Assembly (NCBI RefSeq): GCF_054482525.1
Contig: NZ_CM137006.1
DNA: 64,000 nt
Direction: 5' to 3' (one strand)
Below are positions 31,886-44,907 of this stretch, piece by piece; position 1 is the stretch's first letter; each line of letters begins with the position of its first letter. A model generated the notes under the pieces. The model had not been told where the DNA came from, ran no database searches, and saw nothing but the letters and a program-made list of their open reading frames with translations. Position numbers and translations under genes: made by a program.

Positions 31886-33537
31886 TTGGGACGATACTGA
31901 ATCAGCACCAGACGCTCCTGACGATCGATGGTATCTGCGGGCGGAATGGCGAGACTGTTGATATCTTCATCGCGGTCAACCGAAAGCACGAGTGTAATAA
32001 TCCCCTCCTGACGATGTTGATTAAGCCAGTTTGCGAACTCATCACCGCTGACAAATCTCCCTTTCGCATCCGGATAATTAAGGCCGTATTTCAACTCACC
32101 TGTCTGGCGATACATGATGATGTCATCGCGTTGCAGGCTCCATGCCAGACCTGCGGCAACACCGACGCTATCAGTAAGAATATAGCGGCTTGGCTGCAGT
32201 GATTCTTGTGTCATCTCGACAAAAAATTGCGGATGTTTTCCTTCCATGACTCTGTCAGGAATTGAAAATCCTACCAGCAACGCCAGCCCCAGCGGGCAAA
32301 GCGCGGCAAAAGACCAGGTCTTTTCGACGTTTGTTAAGGTGTACCAGCCGAAAAATGCCCATAGCGAAAAAATCGACCAGGCACAGAAGACTTTATAGCT
32401 CTCGAAGGTTTGCCACACCGGCGTGTTCATTGGTCCCCAGGGGGAGACCACAAACGTAGCAATAATGCCAGTGACGCCAAAAGCGATGTTAATCCAGCCA
32501 TTAATCCGCAACGCCAGAGGATTATTTTTTGCTGCCAGCAAAGCGTAATGCGCCATCAGCATTGCCAGAGGTGCAAAGCAGGAAAGAATATAGGTGGGCA
32601 ATTTGCCTTTGGCGACGGAGAAAAACAGCAGCGGCATTACCGCCCAGCTCAACAAATAGACGGTTGCGGAATGCTTGCGGTTTTTCCAGCCTGCGTACAG
32701 TGCTCCGGGGAGTAATCCCAGCCACGGCAGGCTACCGGCAATGATGACCGGCAAGTAGTACCAGAACGAAGCTCTATGCTGAGCATCATCCATTGCAAAG
32801 CGTTGAATATGCTCAACCCAGAAAAAATAGTGCCAGAAGTCAGGCTCCCGCTGCGCTATCGCCAGTCCCCAGGGGAGAACCGTCAGTACGCAACTGATAA
32901 CCGCCAGCCAGCCGTAAATAAAGAGATCTTTCCAGCGTTTTTGCGTTGCAACCCATGGAAGCACGCTTAATACCGGCACGGCAAGGGCGAGAAAACCTTT
33001 GGTCATCACCCCCATGCCGCAAGTGATTCCCAGCAGTAAAAATCCCGCGCTTTTGCCTTTCCACGTCTGTGCCTGCATTGCCAGCCAGAAGCTGCACATT
33101 CCCGCCACCAGCCAGAAGGCAATAAACGGATCGAGCACGGCATAAGTGCCGATGGCATAGACAATGAACAATGAGAGGTAAATCACTGCGGCGAGTAATG
33201 CCAGACGTTTATCGCGCCATAAGCGCAGAGTAAACCAGGTCACCAGCGCGGCAGTTAACAGGGTCGCAAAGATAACGCCTGCCCGCACACCAAAGTTATT
33301 CGCGCCAAATAACCATTGCCCAATGCTGTTAATCCAGTATCCGGCAATGGGTTTTTCAAAATAACGTAGCCCTAACAGATGGGGCACAATCCAGTCGCCG
33401 GATGCCAGCATTTCCCGACTGATTTCCGCATAACGCGTTTCATCGGGTTGCCAGAGCAGACGCGTGCTGATCGGTAACAGGTAATAGCAGGCAATAAACG
33501 CGAAGAGGCCGATAAGGTAACGTACCGATTTCATCAA
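31882..33537 (-). CDS. arnT: Lipid A 4-amino-4-deoxy-L-arabinose transferase ArnT
   Basis: 551 aa (550 from the second Met), polytopic glycosyltransferase; operon order. Confidence 0.93.
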
Positions 33538-34424
33538 CGACTACCCACAATTTGTTGGCAACCCAGCCAGCCTTCACGTCCGGCAATATTTCCGCGAACA
33601 ACTTGCCCGAGCGGCAACGTCCCTGATAACAGTTCGCTTAAAGGGCAAAATGTCACGCCTTCCTGGGCTGCCCGTTTCAGGAGATCCACAAAATTATGCT
33701 GATAAGCGCAGCCTTCAACTTCTGCATGAATGGTATAAACCGGCGTGCCTTTATCTCGCAGGATGCGGTTGAGTAACCAACCGTTAAAATCTTCTGCTTT
33801 CACATCCCGACCAATCACTTCATCCCAGGTGGGTAAGGTCACCGGAATTTGCGCAGTACCGGGTTTTCCTGATTCGAGCAATGGACGAAACGGCATCGCT
33901 CCACGACAATCGCTGTTGTAGCGCAAATGGAACGCTTCTTTTGCTTCGATCACCTGCTGGTCGGCACGCCAGCCAGCGGCTGCGGAGCAAGTTACCGGTT
34001 GGCCGATAATTTCTTCCAGGGTGCGAAGGCCGCGTGCGATATCGTCGACCATTGTTTGCCGATCCCAGTTACCGCTATGGGCTTGCCAGGCATGGTGATC
34101 CCAGGCGTGCAGGCCGACTTCGTGGTGTTTAGCCGCTTCACGAATGATATCGGCATTGGCATGACCAATCTCTTTACCTGGCCAGGCCGTACCTGCCAGT
34201 AAAATATCCCAGCCATAAAGCGATGCCGCGTTTGAGCGCAGCATCTTCCACAAAAACTGTGGCTTCACCAGTCGCCAGAGATGGCGGCCCATATTGTCCG
34301 GGCCGACGCTGAAAAAAATGCTGGCCTGAATATTATGCTTACTCAAGATTTCCAGCAGACGCGGCACGCCTTCACGGGTGCCACGAAAGGTATCGACATC
34401 AATGCGTAAGCCTACTTTGGTCAT
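33534..34424 (-). CDS. arnD: 4-deoxy-4-formamido-L-arabinose-phosphoundecaprenol deformylase ArnD
   Basis: 296 aa, polysaccharide-deacetylase-like. Confidence 0.93.
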
Positions 34425-36402
34425 GATGGTTTATCCGTAAGATCAACGGTGCGCAGGAAGAAATCCAGCGTTTCGTCGATGGTTTCCTGCATATCAATTT
34501 TTGGTTCCCAGTCCAGGCAGCGGCGGGCATTGCGGATGCTCGGTTTACGATGCTCTACATCCTGATATCCTTTGCCGTAGTAGCTGCTACTTTCGACAAC
34601 ACGAAAGCCCGCAAACGGTGGGAAGTGATGGCGCAGCGGATGTTTTTCGAAGCTCGCCAGCAGCATCTCGCCCAGTTCCTCAATGCTCGCTTCGTTATCA
34701 GGATTGCCAATGTTGATAATTTCGCCGTCGCAGCGATTTCCCGCATTTTCGATAATGCGGTATAACGCCTCGATACCATCGCGAATATCAGTAAAGCAGC
34801 GTTTTTGTTTTCCGCCATCAATTAGCTTAATTGGTGAACCTTCTACCAGATTGAGAATGAGTTGCGTAATAGCGCGGGAGCTGCCGATTCGTGCTGCATT
34901 AAGGTTATCCAGTCGTGGTCCCATCCAGTTAAACGGCCGGAAGAGGGTGAACTGTAAACCCTCTTTTTCGCCATAGGCCCAGATCACCCGATCAAGTAAT
35001 TGTTTTGACACCGAATAAATCCAGCGTGGTTTATTCACCGGGCCGACGATTAAATTAGAATGGTCCTCATCGAAGTATTTATCGCTACACATCCCATAAA
35101 CTTCTGAAGTTGACGGGAAGATGATTCGCTTACGGTACTTCACGCAGTAGCGGATAATGCGCAGATTCTCTTCAAAATCGAGTTCAAATACGCGCAACGG
35201 GTTGCGGGTATATTCAATCGGCGTGGCTATCGCCACCAGCGGCAAGACGACATCACATTTTTTGACGTGATACTCAATCCATTCGGAATGAATACTGATA
35301 TCGCCTTCGACAAAGTGAAAATGCGGATGATTCAGAAAACGGCTTATCGCATCGCTGCCAATATCCAGACCGTAAACTTCATAATGATCTTCGCGCAGCA
35401 GGCGTTCTGTCAGATGGTTGCCAATAAAGCCATTCACCCCGAGGATGAGTACCCGGGTACGGCGTCGGGCGGTGCAGGCAGGCTGGCTATTCAAGCGTGA
35501 ACCTTGCACCAGGCCCAGCGTCTGCGCTAACTGCGAGCCCTGCATAGTAATGCCGTCGCCCGCCTGTCCGGTGACGATTTCCAGCGCGCCATCGCCACAG
35601 GCAATCAGCAGTGGTGCAACAGAAATCACGCTCCCCGGCTGTGCTTTGCTGGCATGAGGATGAACACGCGACGACCAGACGGTGAATTTCTGATTGCCAA
35701 CATAGCTGAAGGCACCCGGCCACGGATCGGCAACGGCACGCACCATGTTGTGCAGTACGGATGCCGGCTTATGCCATTCGAGGAAACTGTCTTCCGGTGT
35801 TCTGCGACCAAAACAGGTGGCTTCGTTTTCGCGCTGGGCGATTTCCAGAATATTACCGTGTTTAATGGCGGGTAATGTCTGCTCCAATAGCTGGCGCGCG
35901 GCATGGCACAATTTATGATGCAGCGTAATGGCGATATCGTCTGGCGCAATGGCAACGCGCAGTTGTGCCACAATGGCCCCGGCATCGGCACGTTTCACCA
36001 TTCGGTGCAATGTAACGCCAGTTTCCGTTTCACCGTTCACCAGCACCCAGTTCAGCGGCGCGCGACCACGATATTTTGGTAACAGCGAACCATGCAGATT
36101 AAATGCACCTCTCGGAGCGAGCTGCAAAATCTCATCGCAAATAAGATGGCGATAATAAAAAGAGAAAATCACCTCTGGTGATAGTTGGGCAATGCGTTCC
36201 ACCCACAGCGGATGATTAACGTTATCCGGCGCATAAACTGGAATGCCTCTTTCCGCTGCCAGTCGGGCAACCGAACCATAAAAGGCTTTTTCACCGGGGT
36301 TATCAGTATGGGTAAAAATGGCGCTAATTTCGTAACCGGCAGACAGCAGGGCTTCAATACCGAGGCATCCCATATCGTGGTAGGCAAAAACGACGGTTTT
36401 CA

Positions 36403-36403
<1 letters not shown>
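34421..36403 (-). CDS. arnA: Bifunctional UDP-glucuronate decarboxylase / UDP-Ara4N formyltransferase ArnA
   Basis: 660 aa; N-terminal formyltransferase ([13 protein letters not shown]) and C-terminal short-chain dehydrogenase domain ([14 protein letters not shown]). Confidence 0.95.
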
Positions 36404-37374
<971 letters not shown>

Positions 37375-38514
37375 TTATTGTCCTGCGAGTTGCTGAAGGG
37401 CTGTGATGACGCGGTCGGCATCGGCGGTGGTCATATCCGGGAACAGCGGCAACGAACAGATGCGTTCGCTATTCCATTCGGTATTCGGTAACGACAGCGT
37501 GGGAAAACGCTCGCGATAATATTTTTGTGTGTGAGCGGCGCGGAAATGTAACCCGGTACCAATGCCTCTTTCTTTTAACGCTTCCATCAACGCATCGCGA
37601 CTGATACCACAACGTTGTTCATCGACACGAATAATAAACAGATGCCAGGCGTGAACGTGCGGCCAGGCGGGAAGGCTTAATGGCTGAAAGGGGAGAGCTG
37701 CCAGTGCTTGCTGATATTGCTGGGCAATTTCGCGCCGACGGGTGTTGAGGTGCTCTAATTTGGCTAACTGGGTCAGGGCAATCGCGGCGTTAATATCGGT
37801 CAGATTATACTTATAGCCCGGCGTTAAGACTTCAGCTTGCGGTGCACGGCCCCAGGTTTGTCTGTCATAGGCATCGACACCCAGACCGTGAAATTTTAGC
37901 ATCCGTAGCTGGCGGGCAAGGTTTTCATTATCAGTAACAATCAGGCCACCTTCCGCACAGGTAATATTTTTGATGGCGTGAAACGAAAAAATAGCGGTAC
38001 CTTTTGCGCCAATATGTCGGCCTTTGTAATACGTACCGACGGCATGGGCAGCATCTTCGATAACTGCGATGCCGTAACGTTCGCCAATGGCGCGAATGGC
38101 GTCAATATCTGCTGGCGCACCGGCATAATGCACCGGAATGATGGCTTTAGTGCGTGGCGTAATGGCTGACTCGATCGCTTCAGGCGTGACCATCAGCGTA
38201 TCGCGGTCGACATCCACCATTACCGGCGTTGCACCCAACAAGGAGATCATATTGAGGGTTGAAACCCAGGTCAGGGAAGGCGTAATCACTTCATCGCCCT
38301 TGCCAATTTCCAACGCCATTAGCGTGATATGCATTCCGGCGGTGGCTGAACTGACCGCGATGGCATGCTGATTTCCCGTCAACTGGCAAAAGGCTTGTTC
38401 AAGCGCCTGATTCTTCGGACCGGTTGTGATCCAACCGGATTCGAGAACCTCTTTAACTGCAGCGAGTTCCTCCACGCCCATTGCTGGTCGCGAAAAAGGC
38501 AAAAATTCTGACAT
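37375..38514 (-). CDS. arnB: UDP-4-amino-4-deoxy-L-arabinose aminotransferase ArnB
   Basis: ATG at 38512..38514 gives [13 protein letters not shown] (379 aa); the track ORF extends to 38547. Confidence 0.9.
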
Positions 38515-38612
38515 TGCTTTTCCTTCCGCCATTGAATACCTGTCCACTTATATTTGCTATAAAGAGTGTTGTGTATATTTTGCCATTTGGAGCAAAATTT
38601 TAAGGATAGAAT

Positions 38613-38629
38613 ATTAACTTAACCTTAAG
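38613..38629 (-). promoter_or_regulatory. Putative PmrA (BasR) box upstream of arnB
   Basis: Minus-strand sequence CTTAAG-GTTAA-GTTAAT is a direct repeat of the YTTAAK half-site with 5-nt spacing, about 100 nt upstream of the arnB start; PmrA control of arn is established, the exact site is my reading. Confidence 0.5.
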
Positions 38630-38821
38630 AAACTAATATTAGACGTAAATATTGAAATTTTTATATTTTTTCTTATTTAGGCTTTGCATTTGGCAAAATT
38701 TTGAGGCATTTTGCCGGCATCGCAGGATTTTTAATATTACACCAACTGCTAATTATCGCCAGAAATGTCGCTCAATTTCACGGTAATTGTCTGGTTGCGC
38801 TTGTCTATAGGTGGAGTTTAC

Positions 38822-39424
38822 GTGTTAGCTTTTTGCCGCTCTTCGTTGAAGTCAAAAAAATATTTCATCATTTTACTGGCGCTCGCTGCAATTGCCGGAC
38901 TGGGTACTCATGCCGCCTGGAGTAGTAATGGTTTGCCACGTATCGACAATAAAACACTGGCCAGACTGGCACAGCAGCACACGGTTGTCGTTTTGTTTCG
39001 CCATGCTGAACGTTGCGATCGTTCAACCAATCAATGCTTGTCAGATAAAACAGGTATTACGGTCAAAGGTACCCAGGATGCCCGTGAACTGGGCAACGCT
39101 TTTAGCGCTGATATCCCTGATTTCGATCTTTATTCCAGTAATACCGTCCGGACCATTCAGTCGGCGACCTGGTTTTCAGCGGGTAAAAAGCTGACGGTAG
39201 ATAAACGACTTCTTCAATGCGGTAATGAGATTTATAGTGCAATTAAGGACTTACAAAGCAAAGCACCTGATAAAAATATCGTTATTTTTACCCATAATCA
39301 TTGCCTGACATATATTGCTAAAGATAAGCGTGATGCGACATTTAAACCTGATTATCTGGATGGTTTAGTCATGCATGTGGAAAAAGGCAAAGTTTATCTG
39401 GATGGGGAATTCGTTAACCACTAA
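38822..39424 (+). CDS. ais: LPS core heptose(II)-phosphate phosphatase Ais (PmrG)
   Basis: GTG at 38822 gives (M)[25 protein letters not shown] and 200 aa with signal peptide; divergent from arnB. Confidence 0.88.
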
Positions 39425-39462
39425 ATTTTCAATCTGACAGCCAGTAATGGCTGTCATCATTG

Positions 39463-39888
39463 TTACAGAAGACCTTTCAAACGTAACGTTTTTCGGGTGG
39501 CGACATTCAAATCATAATGCACCAGATCTTCAGGTTTTACCCACGCGTAGTCCTGAAACTCTTCGTTTATTTTCACTTCTCGGTTGGCAGAAACGCAGTC
39601 AAAAATCAGGTAAATCATATAAATCTCTTCCTTGCGACCATCTGCATACGTCTTGGTGCGAATATCATCGCTGAAGGTCCACGGCGTGATTTCTGTCAAA
39701 AGCAGCTGTTCTCCCAGTTCTTCGCGAATTTCGCGGCGTAGTGCCTCTTCAATTCGTTCGCCAGGCTCCACGCCGCCACCCGAAAGCGCCCATTGACCGG
39801 GGAAAACGCCGCGATCGTCGGCCATTTTACACAGCAAATAAGCACCATCATTTTGAATCAAAGGGCATACAATAGTCCGTTGTCGCAC
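39463..39888 (-). CDS. nudI: Nudix hydrolase NudI (nucleoside triphosphatase)
   Basis: GTG at 39886..39888 gives (M)[59 protein letters not shown] (Nudix box), 141 aa. Confidence 0.88.
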
Positions 39889-40166
39889 GGGGATATTCCT
39901 TATAAATAAAAAGAAACCATGAGAATACGGTAACTCAGAAATATGTGAAAGTGACAGTAATCTCTTTTGCGATGATAACTGCACTTATTATTATTTTTGT
40001 GTGTATCGATAAAGTGTGTTTATTTTTTCGGCGTTTAATTATTTAAGAAGTATTTAGTTACAATAAGTGACTAGATCCCTTTTTTCGCTCATTGAATCCT
40101 CTGTGCCAGGCAGTACAATCCCGCAGCTTTGGGAATTTTGATTTATTGCTTGTGGGAGAGGGGAAA

Positions 40167-40808: not shown

Positions 40809-42017
40809 ATGTTAAAAGTGGAAATGTTATCCACCGGGGATGAAGTGTTACACGGGCAAATCGTTGACACTAACGCTGCCTGGCTGGCCGATTTTTTCTT
40901 TCATCAGGGGTTGCCTTTAACTCGCCGCAATACGGTGGGGGATAACCTTGATGACTTAGTCACCATTCTTCGCGAACGTAGTCAGCACGCCGATGTGCTG
41001 ATCGTTAACGGCGGGCTGGGGCCGACCAGTGATGATTTAAGCGCACTCGCCGCTGCGACAGCAAAAGGTGAAGGCCTGGTGTTGCATGAAGCCTGGCTCA
41101 AAGAGATGGAACGCTATTTCCACGAACGTGGACGAGTAATGGCACCGAGCAACCGTAAACAAGCGGAGCTACCTGCCAGTGCTGAATTTATCAATAACCC
41201 GGTAGGCACCGCCTGTGGTTTTGCCGTGCAGCTTAATCGTTGCCTGATGTTCTTTACCCCCGGCGTACCGTCAGAATTTAAGGTGATGGTCGAGCACGAA
41301 ATCCTGCCGCGTCTGCGCGAGCGTTTTTCTTTACCACAGCCGCCGGTTTGTCTGCGTTTAACTACCTTTGGTCGTTCGGAAAGCGATCTGGCACAAAGCC
41401 TGGACACTCTACAACTGCCGCCGGGCGTAACAATGGGCTATCGCTCCTCAATGCCTATCATCGAACTGAAACTCACCGGACCGGCAAGCGAGCAACAGGC
41501 GATGGAAAAACTGTGGCTGGACGTTAAACGTGTTGCCGGACAGAGCGTGATTTTCGAAGGCACCGAAGGACTGCCCGCGCAGATCAGTCGCGAATTGCAA
41601 AACCGCCAGTTCAGCCTGACGTTGAGCGAGCAATTCACCAGCGGTTTATTGGCTTTGCAACTTTCTCGCGCAGGTGCTCCATTGCTGGCGTGTGAAGTGG
41701 TTCCTTCACAGGAAGAAACCCTGGCGCAAACTGCGCACTGGATTACAGAACGGCGGGCCAACCATTTTGCCGGGCTGGCACTGGCTGTTTCGGGTTTCGA
41801 GAACGAGCATCTCAACTTTGCGCTAGCCACGCCAGATGGCACTTTCGCTCTGCGTGTACGTTTCAGCACTACACGCTACAGCCTGGCTATCCGTCAGGAA
41901 GTGTGCGCAATGATGGCACTGAATATGCTGCGCCGTTGGTTAAACGGCCAGGACATTGCCAGTGAGCATGGCTGGATTGAGGTTGTTGAGTCCATGACCT
42001 TATCCAGTGCGCCGTAA
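40809..42017 (+). CDS. yfaY: CinA-like (molybdopterin-binding / competence-damage-inducible family) protein YfaY
   Basis: 402 aa; N-terminal MoCF-biosynthesis-like domain (MLKVEMLSTGDEVLHGQIVDTNAAWL); the last few codons may derive from the adjacent IS left end. Confidence 0.85.
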   Translation: MLKVEMLSTGDEVLHGQIVDTNAAWLADFFFHQGLPLTRRNTVGDNLDDLVTILRERSQHADVLIVNGGLGPTSDDLSALAAATAKGEGLVLHEAWLKEMERYFHERGRVMAPSNRKQAELPASAEFINNPVGTACGFAVQLNRCLMFFTPGVPSEFKVMVEHEILPRLRERFSLPQPPVCLRLTTFGRSESDLAQSLDTLQLPPGVTMGYRSSMPIIELKLTGPASEQQAMEKLWLDVKRVAGQSVIFEGTEGLPAQISRELQNRQFSLTLSEQFTSGLLALQLSRAGAPLLACEVVPSQEETLAQTAHWITERRANHFAGLALAVSGFENEHLNFALATPDGTFALRVRFSTTRYSLAIRQEVCAMMALNMLRRWLNGQDIASEHGWIEVVESMTLSSAP

Positions 42018-42492
42018 AACCCCGTCCTTCAGGGCGGGGATATAAGGCGCGGTTTTCCACCTGACCAGGTGTTTGCTGTTGTTCAATGTATTGGCGGATG
42101 ACGGATATTGGCGCACCTCCGCAGCTACTGGCAAAATAGCCAGGACTCCACAAAACGCCTTTGTAGTAATACCTGACAGCAATATCTGGTCGATCTCGTC
42201 GCAGAAACCTATTCGATATGCCTTTGAGGCTGTTTACCAGACTGAATATCGCCAGTTTTGGAGGATAGTTAATTAACAAATGGACGTGATCTGGTTCGCC
42301 ATCCATTTCAATCAGTTCAGCTTCAAAATCAGCACATACATTTGAAAAGTAAGTGCGTAGTTTTTCTGTCGCGTCATGGTCAAAAATCTGGCGTCGGTAT
42401 TTGGTGACAAAGACCCGGTGAACATGCATCAGGAAAACACAATGCCTTCCACGCCGGATATCGGTTTCTTTTTTCACAGACCAAAGTATCAT
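41887..42492 (-). CDS. tnpA: IS605-family transposase TnpA (Y1 HUH), apparently C-terminally extended
   Basis: HCVFLMHVHRVFVTKYRRQIF ... PDHVHLLINYPPK (HuH) ... LWSPGYFASSCGG (Tyr region); the core is about 150 aa but the ORF runs to 201 aa through the left-end hairpin and antisense into the yfaY 3' end. Confidence 0.8.
   Translation of the reverse strand: MILWSVKKETDIRRGRHCVFLMHVHRVFVTKYRRQIFDHDATEKLRTYFSNVCADFEAELIEMDGEPDHVHLLINYPPKLAIFSLVNSLKGISNRFLRRDRPDIAVRYYYKGVLWSPGYFASSCGGAPISVIRQYIEQQQTPGQVENRALYPRPEGRGFTAHWIRSWTQQPQSSHAHWQCPGRLTNGAAYSVPSLRTLPDG
42020..42039 (+). repeat. Left-end subterminal hairpin of the IS605-family element
   Basis: CCCCGTCC-TTCA-GGGCGGGG (8-bp stem including one G-T wobble, 4-nt loop); 17 of 20 identical to the right-end hairpin. 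Confidence 0.65.
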
Positions 42493-42499
42493 TTGGCCT

Positions 42500-43708
42500 G
42501 TGAAACGACTACAGGCATTTAAATTCCAGTTAAGACCCGGTGGTCAACAGGAGCGTGAAATGAGGCGCTTCGCAGGCGCATGTCGTTTCGTTTTCAATCG
42601 TGCTCTGGCACGTCAGAATGAGAATCATGAGGCCGGTAATAAATACATCCCTTACGGGAAAATGGCTTCCTGGCTGGTTGAGTGGAAAAACGCCACTGAA
42701 ACGCAATGGCTTAAAGATGCCCCCTCACAGCCATTGCAACAGTCACTGAAAGACCTTGAGCGGGCTTACAAAAACTTCTTCCAGAATCGGGCTGCTTTTC
42801 CCCGATTCAAAAAGCGGGGACAGAATGATGCATTCCGCTACCCGCAGGGCGTTAAGCTCGATCAGGAAAACAGCCGTATTTTTCTGCCGAAACTTGGCTG
42901 GATGCGCTACCGGAACAGCCGTCAGGTCACGGGTGTTGTAAAAAATGTCACTGTCAGCCAGTCCTGCGGTAAGTGGTACATCAGTATTCAGACAGAAAGT
43001 GAAGTATCAACTCCGGATCACCCTTCAGCATCAATGGTCGGGCTGGATGCTGGCGTGGCTAAACTCGCCACGCTGTCAGATGGCACAGTCTTTGAGCCTG
43101 TAAACAGTTTTCAGAAAAACCAGAAGACGCTGGCGAGACTTCAGCGACAGTTAAGCCGCAAGGTCAAATTCAGCAACAACTGGCAGAAGCAGAAACGCAA
43201 AATACAGCGACTGCATTCCTGTATCGCAAATATCCGCAGGGACTACCTTCACAAAGTCACAACGACCGTCAGCAAAAACCACGCAATGATAGTCATTGAG
43301 GATTTGAAGGTCAGCAACATGTCAAAGTCAGCAGCGGGTACGGTCAGCCAGCCGGGGCGCAATGTCCGGGCAAAATCAGGTTTAAACCGTTCGATACTGG
43401 ATCAGGGCTGGTATGAAATGCGCCGCCAGCTTGAGTACAAGCAGCTCTGGCGTGGCGGTCAGGTGCTTGCTGTTCCGCCAGCGTACACAAGCCAGCGTTG
43501 CACGTGCTGTGGTCATACAGCGAAAGAAAATCGCCTGTCACAAAGTCAATTCAGATGCCAGGTATGTGGATATACAGCGAACGCCGATGTAAATGGCGCT
43601 CGTAACATTTTAGCGGCGGGGCACGCCGTTCTTGCCTGTGGAGGGATGGTGCAGTCAGGCCGCTCGTTGAAGCAGGAACCCACCGAAATGATTCAGGCGA
43701 CAGCCTGA
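42500..43708 (+). CDS. tnpB: TnpB (OrfB), RuvC-like RNA-guided nuclease of IS605 family
   Basis: 402 aa, GTG start; RuvC-I ([16 protein letters not shown]), RuvC-II ([10 protein letters not shown]), zinc finger (CTCCGH ... CQVCG), RuvC-III ([10 protein letters not shown]). Confidence 0.9.
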
Positions 43709-43721
43709 ACGTAGCAGGGAT

Positions 43722-43741
43722 CCACGTTCTTCAGGGCGTGG
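43722..43741 (+). repeat. Right-end subterminal hairpin of the IS605-family element
   Basis: CCACGTTC-TTCA-GGGCGTGG, same architecture and loop as the left-end hairpin, 14 nt after the tnpB stop. Confidence 0.65.
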
Positions 43742-44907
43742 AGGATGTCAAGTTGGCGCTGTATGTGCTGGCGTTTCTCGACCGTTCGAATATCGGTTTT
43801 GCCAAACAGACCTACCAGATTGATACCGGGCTGAGTAATGAAGCTTATGCGCTGGGAGCAGGCATTTTCTTTGTGGTATATGCGTTTCTGGGTGTTCCGG
43901 CGAATCTTTTGATGCGCAAACTGGGGGCAAGAACCTGGATTGGTACGACAACACTGCTGTGGGGATTTCTTTCGGCAGCCATGGCATGGGCCGATACTGA
44001 AGCGAAATTTCTGATCGTTCGCACTCTGCTTGGTGCTGCGGAGGCCGGGTTCTTCCCTGGTATGATTTATCTCACCTCGCAATGGTTTCCGCAGCGTAAT
44101 CGCGCCAGCATTATGGGGCTGTTCTATATGGGTGCACCGCTGGCGTTAACACTGGGATCACCGCTTTCCGGCGCGCTGCTGGAGATGCATGGATTTATGG
44201 GGCATCCCGGCTGGTTCTGGATGTTTGTGATTGAAGGATTGCTGGCAGTCGGCGCTGGGGTATTCACATTCTTTTGGCTTGATGACACACCGGAGCAGGC
44301 ACGTTTTCTGAGTAAACAAGAAAAAACGTTGCTTATCAATCAACTGGCAAGTGAAGAACAACAGAAAGTGACTTCTCGATTGAGCGATGCGCTGCGTAAT
44401 GGCCGAGTCTGGCAACTGGCGATTATCTACCTGACCATTCAGGTGGCGGTTTACGGATTAATTTTCTTCCTGCCGACCCAGGTTGCTGCATTGCTGGGGA
44501 CAAAAGTGGGCTTTACGGCGTCGGTGGTCACCGCCATTCCGTGGGTTGCGGTCTTGTTTGGGACCTGGCTTATTCCGCGCTATTCCGATAAAACCGGCGA
44601 ACGGCGTAATGTCGCAGCGCTGTGTGTTGCAGCCATCGGGTTTATTGCCGTGCAGCCGGTGTTCTGGACGATGCCGACACAACTTCTTTCCGGTACGGCG
44701 CTGGCTGCGGGGATTGGTTTTATAAACCTGTTTGGTGCAGTGGGCGGGTTTATTGCCCCGATCCTGCGCGTGAAAGCAGAAACGTTATTTTCCAGCGATG
44801 CGGCGGGATTACTGACGCTGGCAGCGGTGGCGGTCATCGGTTCACTGATTATTTTCACTCTGCGTGTAAATCACACTGTTGCGCAGACCGACGTGGCACA
44901 TCATTAA
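43738..44907 (+). pseudogene. rhmT: MFS transporter RhmT (YfaV), 5'-truncated at the IS right end
   Basis: Homology to the L-rhamnonate transporter begins at LALYVLAFLDRSNIGFAKQ; the native N-terminus (about 20-40 residues) is missing and the ORF opens with a GTG inside the IS right-end hairpin; expression and function uncertain. Confidence 0.6.

Follow-up and report, generated by a model that had tools for sequence, protein, structure and literature searches.

The 64,000-nt stretch of DNA analysed here (NCBI RefSeq assembly GCF_054482525.1, contig NZ_CM137006.1; the whole of it is called the window below) carries, between the genes yfaY and yfaV (rhmT), an insertion sequence with two divergently oriented genes, tnpA and tnpB, and a hairpin close to each of its ends. 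In Escherichia coli K-12 the genes yfaX/rhmR and rhmD lie in the corresponding interval, and both are absent at the window locus. Judged by its sequence, the element is IS609, a known and catalogued insertion sequence of the IS605 group within the IS200/IS605 family, and one that is listed in ISfinder. We consider it very probable that this copy is an old, vertically inherited insertion with an intact tnpB and a tnpA that retains its catalytic motifs and has no stop codon of its own, and that it is associated with a 2,348-bp deletion that extends from one TTAT tetranucleotide to another.

The identity and extent of the element follow from comparison with other copies. Window positions 42004-43751 can be aligned end to end with the feature 'insertion sequence:IS609' of K-12 MG1655 (1503161-1504908, 1,748 bp, with insQ and the pseudogene yncK inside it) at 97.7% identity across 1,748 of 1,748 bp, and the similarity collapses directly outside window positions 42004 and 43751. 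The original prediction, which was made from the letters of the window and its open reading frames, had placed an IS605-family element of roughly 1.75 kb at 42000-43750, between yfaY and the rhm genes. Its family assignment and size are borne out by this alignment, while the exact bounds shift to those of the 1,748-bp match; yfaY is indeed the left neighbor, whereas to the right rhmR and rhmD are gone, and the element itself forms the end of yfaY and abuts codon 21 of yfaV.

The ends were fixed from nine insertion sites, of which eight lie elsewhere than the window locus, together with a precise empty site. Further copies were retrieved from eight loci (ydcL-ydcO, yoaG-yeaQ, yajI, a TetR-family gene in two strains, ygjK, gltX-yfeD and yidH), and the copy of strain 042, which occupies the same locus as that of the window, was added to the copies compared. 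At nine of nine sites YTTAT lies directly 5' of the left end, after which the element starts with CC(A/G)GTGCGCC and finishes with ...GGATGTCAA; its termini, CCAGTG... and ...GTCAA, do not form inverted repeats. The ydcL and ydcO flanks of the K-12 copy are found joined and uninterrupted, at 100% identity, in 2,043 genomes, providing a precise empty site in which a single TTAT is kept and from which target duplication is absent. In addition, the matches to relatives with 67-94% identity, on replicons of Salmonella, Klebsiella, Proteus, E. fergusonii and Shewanella, break off at window position 43751 as well. The nine-site ends, the duplication-free empty site and the boundary of the relatives therefore define the element and its TTAT target as listed in Table 1. 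As read from these junctions, insertion takes place 3' of TTAT, the right end is TCAA and no target is duplicated.

Table 1. Coordinates of IS609 and associated features in the window (position 1 is the first nucleotide of the 64,000-nt stretch).
Feature	Position	Strand	Details
IS609	42004..43751	+ ('top', active strand)	1,748 bp; homology at eight other loci and in relatives stops exactly here
TTAT target and left cleavage tetranucleotide, inferred TnpB target-adjacent motif (TAM)	42000..42003	+	Flank DNA (yfaY codons), outside the element
Left-end subterminal hairpin (IPL)	42020..42039	+	8-bp stem, TTCA loop: CCCCGTCC TTCA GGGCGGGG
Right-end subterminal hairpin (IPR)	43722..43741	+	8-bp stem, TTCA loop: CCACGTTC TTCA GGGCGTGG
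Putative left guide AAAA	42016-42019	+	Analogy with IS608 left guide (GL) AAAG and left cleavage site (CL) TTAC (PMC5934647)
Putative right guide GGAT	43718-43721	+	Directly 5' of IPR
Right cleavage site TCAA	43748-43751	+	Ends 10 nt after the IPR foot
tnpA, Y1 HUH transposase, codons 1-143	42064..42492	-	H69, H71, Y135
tnpB (insQ), 402 aa, GTG start	42500..43708	+	RuvC D183/E267/D363; zinc finger C334/C337/C353/C356
Predicted omega-RNA scaffold	43613..43751	+	3' end of tnpB through right end, ~140 nt
Predicted helices	43613-43629, 43635-43676, 43683-43718, 43721-43742	+	Consensus fold
Right flank, would-be guide portion	43752..43771	+	GTTGGCGCTGTATGTGCTGG; yfaV from codon 21; position inferred from TnpB model (PMC8612924)
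yfaV (rhmT), major facilitator superfamily transporter gene, 5'-truncated	43752..44907	+	K-12 comparison

The two hairpins lie exactly where they had been predicted, are identical at 17 of 20 positions, and their interpretation as the subterminal structures of the element's left end and its right end agrees with the ends seen at the nine sites and with the precise empty site. A degenerate pattern describing them has two matches in the window, IPL and IPR only, as compared with 0.00 expected in shuffled sequences. IPL begins 16 nt inside the left end and is part of a longer imperfect palindrome at 42009-42050, for which the DNA fold has an energy of -13.8 kcal/mol (z = -3.4). As single-stranded DNA, IPR alone is energetically unexceptional (z = -0.5); among relatives it shows compensatory pairs, with A-T, T-A or T-G at one pair and C-G or G-C at another. 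Since the left hairpin begins only 3 nt after the yfaY stop codon, it could be asked if the hairpins are instead features of the host, the left one as a terminator of yfaY or both as sequences like repetitive extragenic palindromic (REP) elements. However, K-12 yfaY has no such hairpin and K-12 homology ends at 42003/42004, upstream of it; the hairpin accompanies the element at eight other loci; the pattern is found nowhere else in the window; and no run of T follows the hairpin. The comparison with K-12 and the presence of the hairpin at other loci refute an origin in the host, which we regard as almost certainly wrong.

The arrangement of these ends is similar to that of IS608 from Helicobacter pylori, which likewise encodes a Y1 HUH TnpA, has subterminal imperfect palindromes at both ends and a 4-nt target 5' of its left end, and does not duplicate its target. 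In IS608, cleavage occurs 3' of TTAC, 19 nt 5' of the left hairpin, and at a TCAA that is found, as in IS609, 10 nt 3' of the right hairpin (PMC3201880), and tetranucleotide guides, GL AAAG and GR (right guide) GAAT, sit 5' of the foot of each hairpin (PMC5934647). If the analogy holds, pairing of TTAT with the putative guide AAAA in IS609 would mirror the pairing of TTAC with AAAG in IS608. The two elements differ in these tetranucleotides and in the distance from the left end to the hairpin (16 nt in IS609, 19 nt in IS608), and also in that tnpA of IS609 is divergent from tnpB and without its own stop codon, unlike the tnpA of IS608, which is co-oriented with tnpB. A bias of the top strand of IS200/IS605 elements toward the lagging-strand template is established (PMC5027513), and GC skew of the + strand is positive in seven of eight bins of the window, which places the top strand of this IS609 on the lagging-strand template, as predicted for the family. 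The only 8-kb bin with negative skew on this strand is 32001-40000 (-0.020), the arn operon region upstream of the locus.

It had also been proposed that the yfaY-rhmR junction of K-12 would serve as a simple empty site for this insertion, and this is not so because 2,348 bp are missing next to IS609. Homology to K-12 resumes at 43752, and the element takes the place of 8 nt at the end of yfaY, of yfaX/rhmR and rhmD, and of 62 nt at the start of yfaV/rhmT. Both K-12 breakpoints are found exactly 3' of TTAT (with a slash for the breakpoint, ...GACCTTAT/C in yfaY and ...CCGTTTAT/GTTGGCG in yfaV), the deletion spanning from the TTAT in the last yfaY codons to the TTAT at yfaV codon 20. The deleted segment contains 14 TTAT, or ~0.6% of its positions, so the chance of the second breakpoint coinciding with one is ~0.006. 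The K-12 MG1655 copy agrees with that of the window in its length and ends, its divergent tnpA and tnpB, its 402-aa InsQ/TnpB, the TTAT on its left and the TCAA at its right end. It differs in being a simple insertion for which there is a precise empty site; beside the window copy lies the deletion.

The loss of rhmR and rhmD could have been independent of the target chemistry of IS609, either because an earlier, unrelated deletion left a scar into which the element inserted or because an illegitimate deletion occurred beside it. In keeping with such an event, single-insertion intermediates, with IS609 at one of the TTAT sites beside wild-type DNA, were found in none of 5,426 complete E. coli genomes, and spontaneous deletions are common, as is illustrated in this same window by a 72-bp deletion in yfaV between AGCGCTG repeats. 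On the other hand, both breakpoints fall on the element's own target; a prior loss through microhomology between the two TTAT sites is possible and leaves a usable TTAT, but a 4-bp event would have had to hit the target motif by chance; and the deletion allele without IS609 was likewise present in none of the genomes. We therefore consider a deletion of unrelated origin improbable and favor one that is tied to the TTAT sites at which IS609 inserts.

Across the same 5,426 genomes, a near-full-length match to IS609 is present in 4,836 (~89%); the median number of matching places in a genome is 3, and plasmids account for 568 of the 18,930 places. These figures agree with a published survey in which ~91% of E. 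coli genomes had elements of the IS605 group, each with ~2 copies, and in which TTAT and TCAA were common motifs of cleavage (PMC9956272). The two junctions of the window were found in 187 and 189 genomes, respectively (~3.5%), including PCN033, which is 100% identical to the window, and 042, and this insertion is already annotated in such RefSeq genomes. When the window and 042 are compared, the element is 98.17% identical and its flanks 97.5-98.4%; because the element has diverged as much as the DNA around it, the insertion appears to be old and vertically inherited. Recent transposition or gene conversion from the second IS609 of PCN033, located at the TetR locus, was considered as a source of the window copy and rejected, since the two differ at 38 positions.

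The open reading frames that start at 42492 and extend over 42500-43708 match the profiles of their families, as the original prediction of a minus-strand tnpA and a plus-strand, 402-aa tnpB implied. TnpB is aligned with the ISDra2 protein (8BF8/8EXA/8H1J) over residues 3-377 (E = 4e-55), and D183, E267 and D363 correspond to ISDra2 D191, E278 and D361. It scores 387 bits against NCBIfam guided_TnpB (NF040570; cutoff 100) and contains the Pfam domains HTH_OrfB_IS605 (PF12323), OrfB_IS605 (PF01385) and Cas12f1-like_TNB (PF07282). The window gene is free of frameshifts and stop codons, so the earlier reading of it as intact, with RuvC and zinc-finger motifs, was accurate. Similarly, each of the 10 copies compared, from 9 loci, has an intact tnpB, and the ratio of nonsynonymous to synonymous polymorphism (pN/pS) in this gene is 0.31. 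A frameshifted tnpB and a rearranged 3' region are found in an IS609 copy on plasmid pEC416_1 (3010-4643), so the gene is not always intact.

The motifs preserved in TnpB suggest that it may be an active RNA-guided nuclease, and a nuclease-dead, domesticated (TldR-like) protein was rejected because the D-E-D triad is intact. The TnpB/omega RNA system of ISDra2 from Deinococcus radiodurans (PDB 8EXA, 8H1J, 8BF8) has this triad and the zinc finger in common with IS609, in which, as in ISDra2, a 3' region predicted to be structured extends up to the right end; the TAM is TTGAT in ISDra2, as opposed to the inferred TTAT in IS609. In the literature searched, the function of InsQ/IS609 TnpB is touched on only in surveys and in one mention of a screen, for which an IS609-type TnpB was purified to assay trans-cleavage (PMC12781874); the section consulted gives no IS609-specific result.

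In the TnpB model, the guide of the omega RNA is placed in the right flank of the element (PMC8612924). When the last ~210 nt of the element were aligned for 12 sequences from six genera, the predicted fold had 95% of cells paired, compared with 36-50% when the partners were slid, and nine compensatory pairs, compared with 0-4 in the controls, values that 0 of 500 shuffles reached; these figures come from a structure that was predicted on the same alignment, coding sequence makes up the part upstream of 43708, and the final helix doubles as the DNA hairpin to which TnpA binds. This predicted structure is consistent with the right-end region encoding an omega RNA that would take its guide from the right flank, starting at 43752. 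Fragments of ~100-140 nt that contain only the right end of an IS609-like element were also seen on an E. coli IncY plasmid (CP057381; L020, 261-399) and on a Providencia stuartii plasmid (L021, 301-404). They keep the conserved scaffold, end exactly in ...GGATGYCAA, have no tnpB upstream, and may be orphan remnants resembling omega RNAs.

TnpA aligns with the IS608 transposase (E = 1e-19), with H69-V-H71 and Y135 opposite the HUH motif and Y127 of IS608, and scores 138.5 bits against NCBIfam transpos_IS200 (NF033573; cutoff 55). The earlier identification of a Y1 HUH transposase thus stands as far as these residues are concerned and requires amendment in that the gene lacks a stop codon of its own and is called a pseudogene in RefSeq. 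There is no internal stop in the window gene, and there is also no stop where relatives end or anywhere within the element, so that the reading frame leaves the element at its left end and reaches 41887 (201 aa), finishing inside yfaY. Related TnpA proteins (Salmonella, Proteus, Photorhabdus, Morganella, Klebsiella) have 138-146 aa and terminate in ...YIEQQQTPG/S/D*, whereas every E. coli IS609 form examined reads on with QVENRALYPRPEGRGF..., translating the left-end hairpin and then whatever flank follows. In the IS609-like elements of five other genera (Salmonella, Klebsiella, Proteus, Photorhabdus and Shewanella), TnpA is 80-84% identical to that of the window, and the right-end region is 67-94% identical and has the same terminal base, but TnpA keeps its own stop. 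The read-through form is common to copies at nine TTAT sites and so predates their dispersal, in which it was presumably active.

Across ten copies tnpA has a pN/pS of 0.71, and six of the 10 copies examined contain an internal stop or frameshift, of which the window copy is free; in K-12, for example, codon 96 is a stop, whereas the window gene is open throughout. Another difference from the K-12 copy is a cluster at 42178-42312 of eight substitutions within 135 bp, mostly nonsynonymous, that are private to the lineage of the window and PCN033. The private residues are R28, I61, F84, I93, N95 and F97, where the consensus has L, V, S, V, S/G and L, and the cluster could be either mutational or a patch of recombination.

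In addition to the missing intermediates, several observations weigh against our reading of this copy. TnpA departs from the family consensus at the six lineage-specific amino acids just named, and an Rfam search of 41500-44300 returned only sub-threshold matches, namely RAGATH-18 (E = 0.05), HgcC (E = 0.2) and sot0042, none of which is relied on here. Other observations would be expected of a dead relic, in which loss of the stop and drift have left tnpA non-functional, tnpB and its RNA are either silent or without activity, and the element is kept only because its removal brings no benefit. At every locus examined, the RefSeq Prokaryotic Genome Annotation Pipeline (PGAP) calls tnpA a pseudogene ('incomplete, missing C-terminus'); a scan for sigma-70 promoters of tnpA and tnpB found nothing promoter-like or convincing; no excision product of the window locus is present among the 5,426 genomes; and the K-12 IS609 made no jumps in mutation-accumulation lines (PMC5009759). 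The similar divergence of the element and its flanks also fits a relic, as does the comparison of the window tnpB with the consensus of the other copies, from which it differs by 11 nonsynonymous and 6 synonymous substitutions.

Each of the two genes also provides evidence against a relic. The PGAP label is given because the tnpA stop is lost and the reading frame runs into the flank, and the presence of the read-through gene at nine different TTAT sites indicates that it was mobile with this form of the gene. In the window copy neither TnpA nor TnpB lacks a catalytic residue, and the conservation of tnpB among copies, as measured by its overall pN/pS, also counts against a dead element. Furthermore, the lack of excision products is predicted by TnpB-mediated retention as well. 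We regard a dead relic as a serious possibility, while doubting that it is the correct account of this locus.

Transposition of IS608 and ISDra2 follows an established scheme, which IS609 would be expected to share. TnpA would bind both subterminal hairpins on the single-stranded top strand, cut on the 3' side of both the TTAT in the flank and the TCAA at the terminus, and excise a single-stranded circle. On the lagging-strand template, the circle would re-insert 3' of another TTAT, with no duplication of the target. TnpB, together with an omega RNA formed from the 3' end of tnpB, the right end and ~16-20 nt of the right flank, would then cut the joint of TTAT and flank produced by excision, and recombination with a sister copy would restore the element. 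Two routes could lead from these activities to the deletion. In one, IS609 copies in the same orientation at both TTAT sites would undergo homologous recombination; in the other, TnpA would catalyse an intramolecular strand transfer from the right end, still in situ, to a downstream TTAT. To our knowledge, an 'adjacent deletion' reaction of the latter type is undescribed for Y1 HUH single-strand transposases.

The position of the second breakpoint has a further potential consequence. In K-12 the sequence that begins at 43752 in the window is preceded by GTTTAT, so wild-type yfaV has both a TTAT and the exact sequence that the guide would specify, and an active TnpB-omega RNA complex would be predicted to cut the wild-type allele too. 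It is conceivable that the deletion was made by TnpA in one step, with the right end (TCAA/) joined 3' of a TTAT captured by the left guide, and that TnpB linked to it drives against the wild-type rhm allele; we offer this combination tentatively, and it is rather unlikely that both of its parts hold together. If they do, the deletion allele would resist replacement by recombination and would act as a small chromosomal drive that locks in the loss of L-rhamnonate catabolism.

IS609 is already catalogued and has been studied as a family, and this copy is otherwise not unusual, so the aspects of it that are mildly novel are limited to the TTAT-to-TTAT deletion and the possible self-protecting effect of the guide. 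The analysis is of modest value in pinning down, from many genomes, the ends of IS609, its TTAT target and inferred TAM, and its empty site. The locus is a clean, naturally occurring case in which a deletion associated with an IS200/IS605 element has target sites of that element at both of its bounds, and this deletion has removed the regulator and the dehydratase of L-rhamnonate catabolism from ~3.5% of sequenced E. coli. It also illustrates that tnpB stays intact as tnpA decays and that IS609 spread in E. coli with a TnpA lacking a stop codon.

Some smaller features were noted within the element and in the genes beside it. The start codons of tnpA (42492) and tnpB (42500) are only 7 bp apart, and a 14-nt inverted repeat (13 of 14 positions complementary, 6-nt spacer) covers both at 42472-42505. 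This repeat may serve both genes as a regulatory site; most of the other copies, in which 42496 is A instead of G, have a poorer version of it. To the left, the final four codons and the stop of yfaY (40809-42017) are supplied by the left end of IS609, so that the protein ends in ...TLSSAP* in the window and in ...TLSV* in K-12, and the read-through reading frame of tnpA overlaps the 3' end of yfaY by ~130 nt on the opposite strand. To the right, the 72-bp deletion in yfaV (44600-44640, near 44622), which is seen on comparison with both K-12 and 042, is in frame and is bounded by the AGCGCTG repeats in direct orientation; taken with the 5' truncation of yfaV and the absence of rhmR and rhmD, it suggests decay of the rhm genes that are left.

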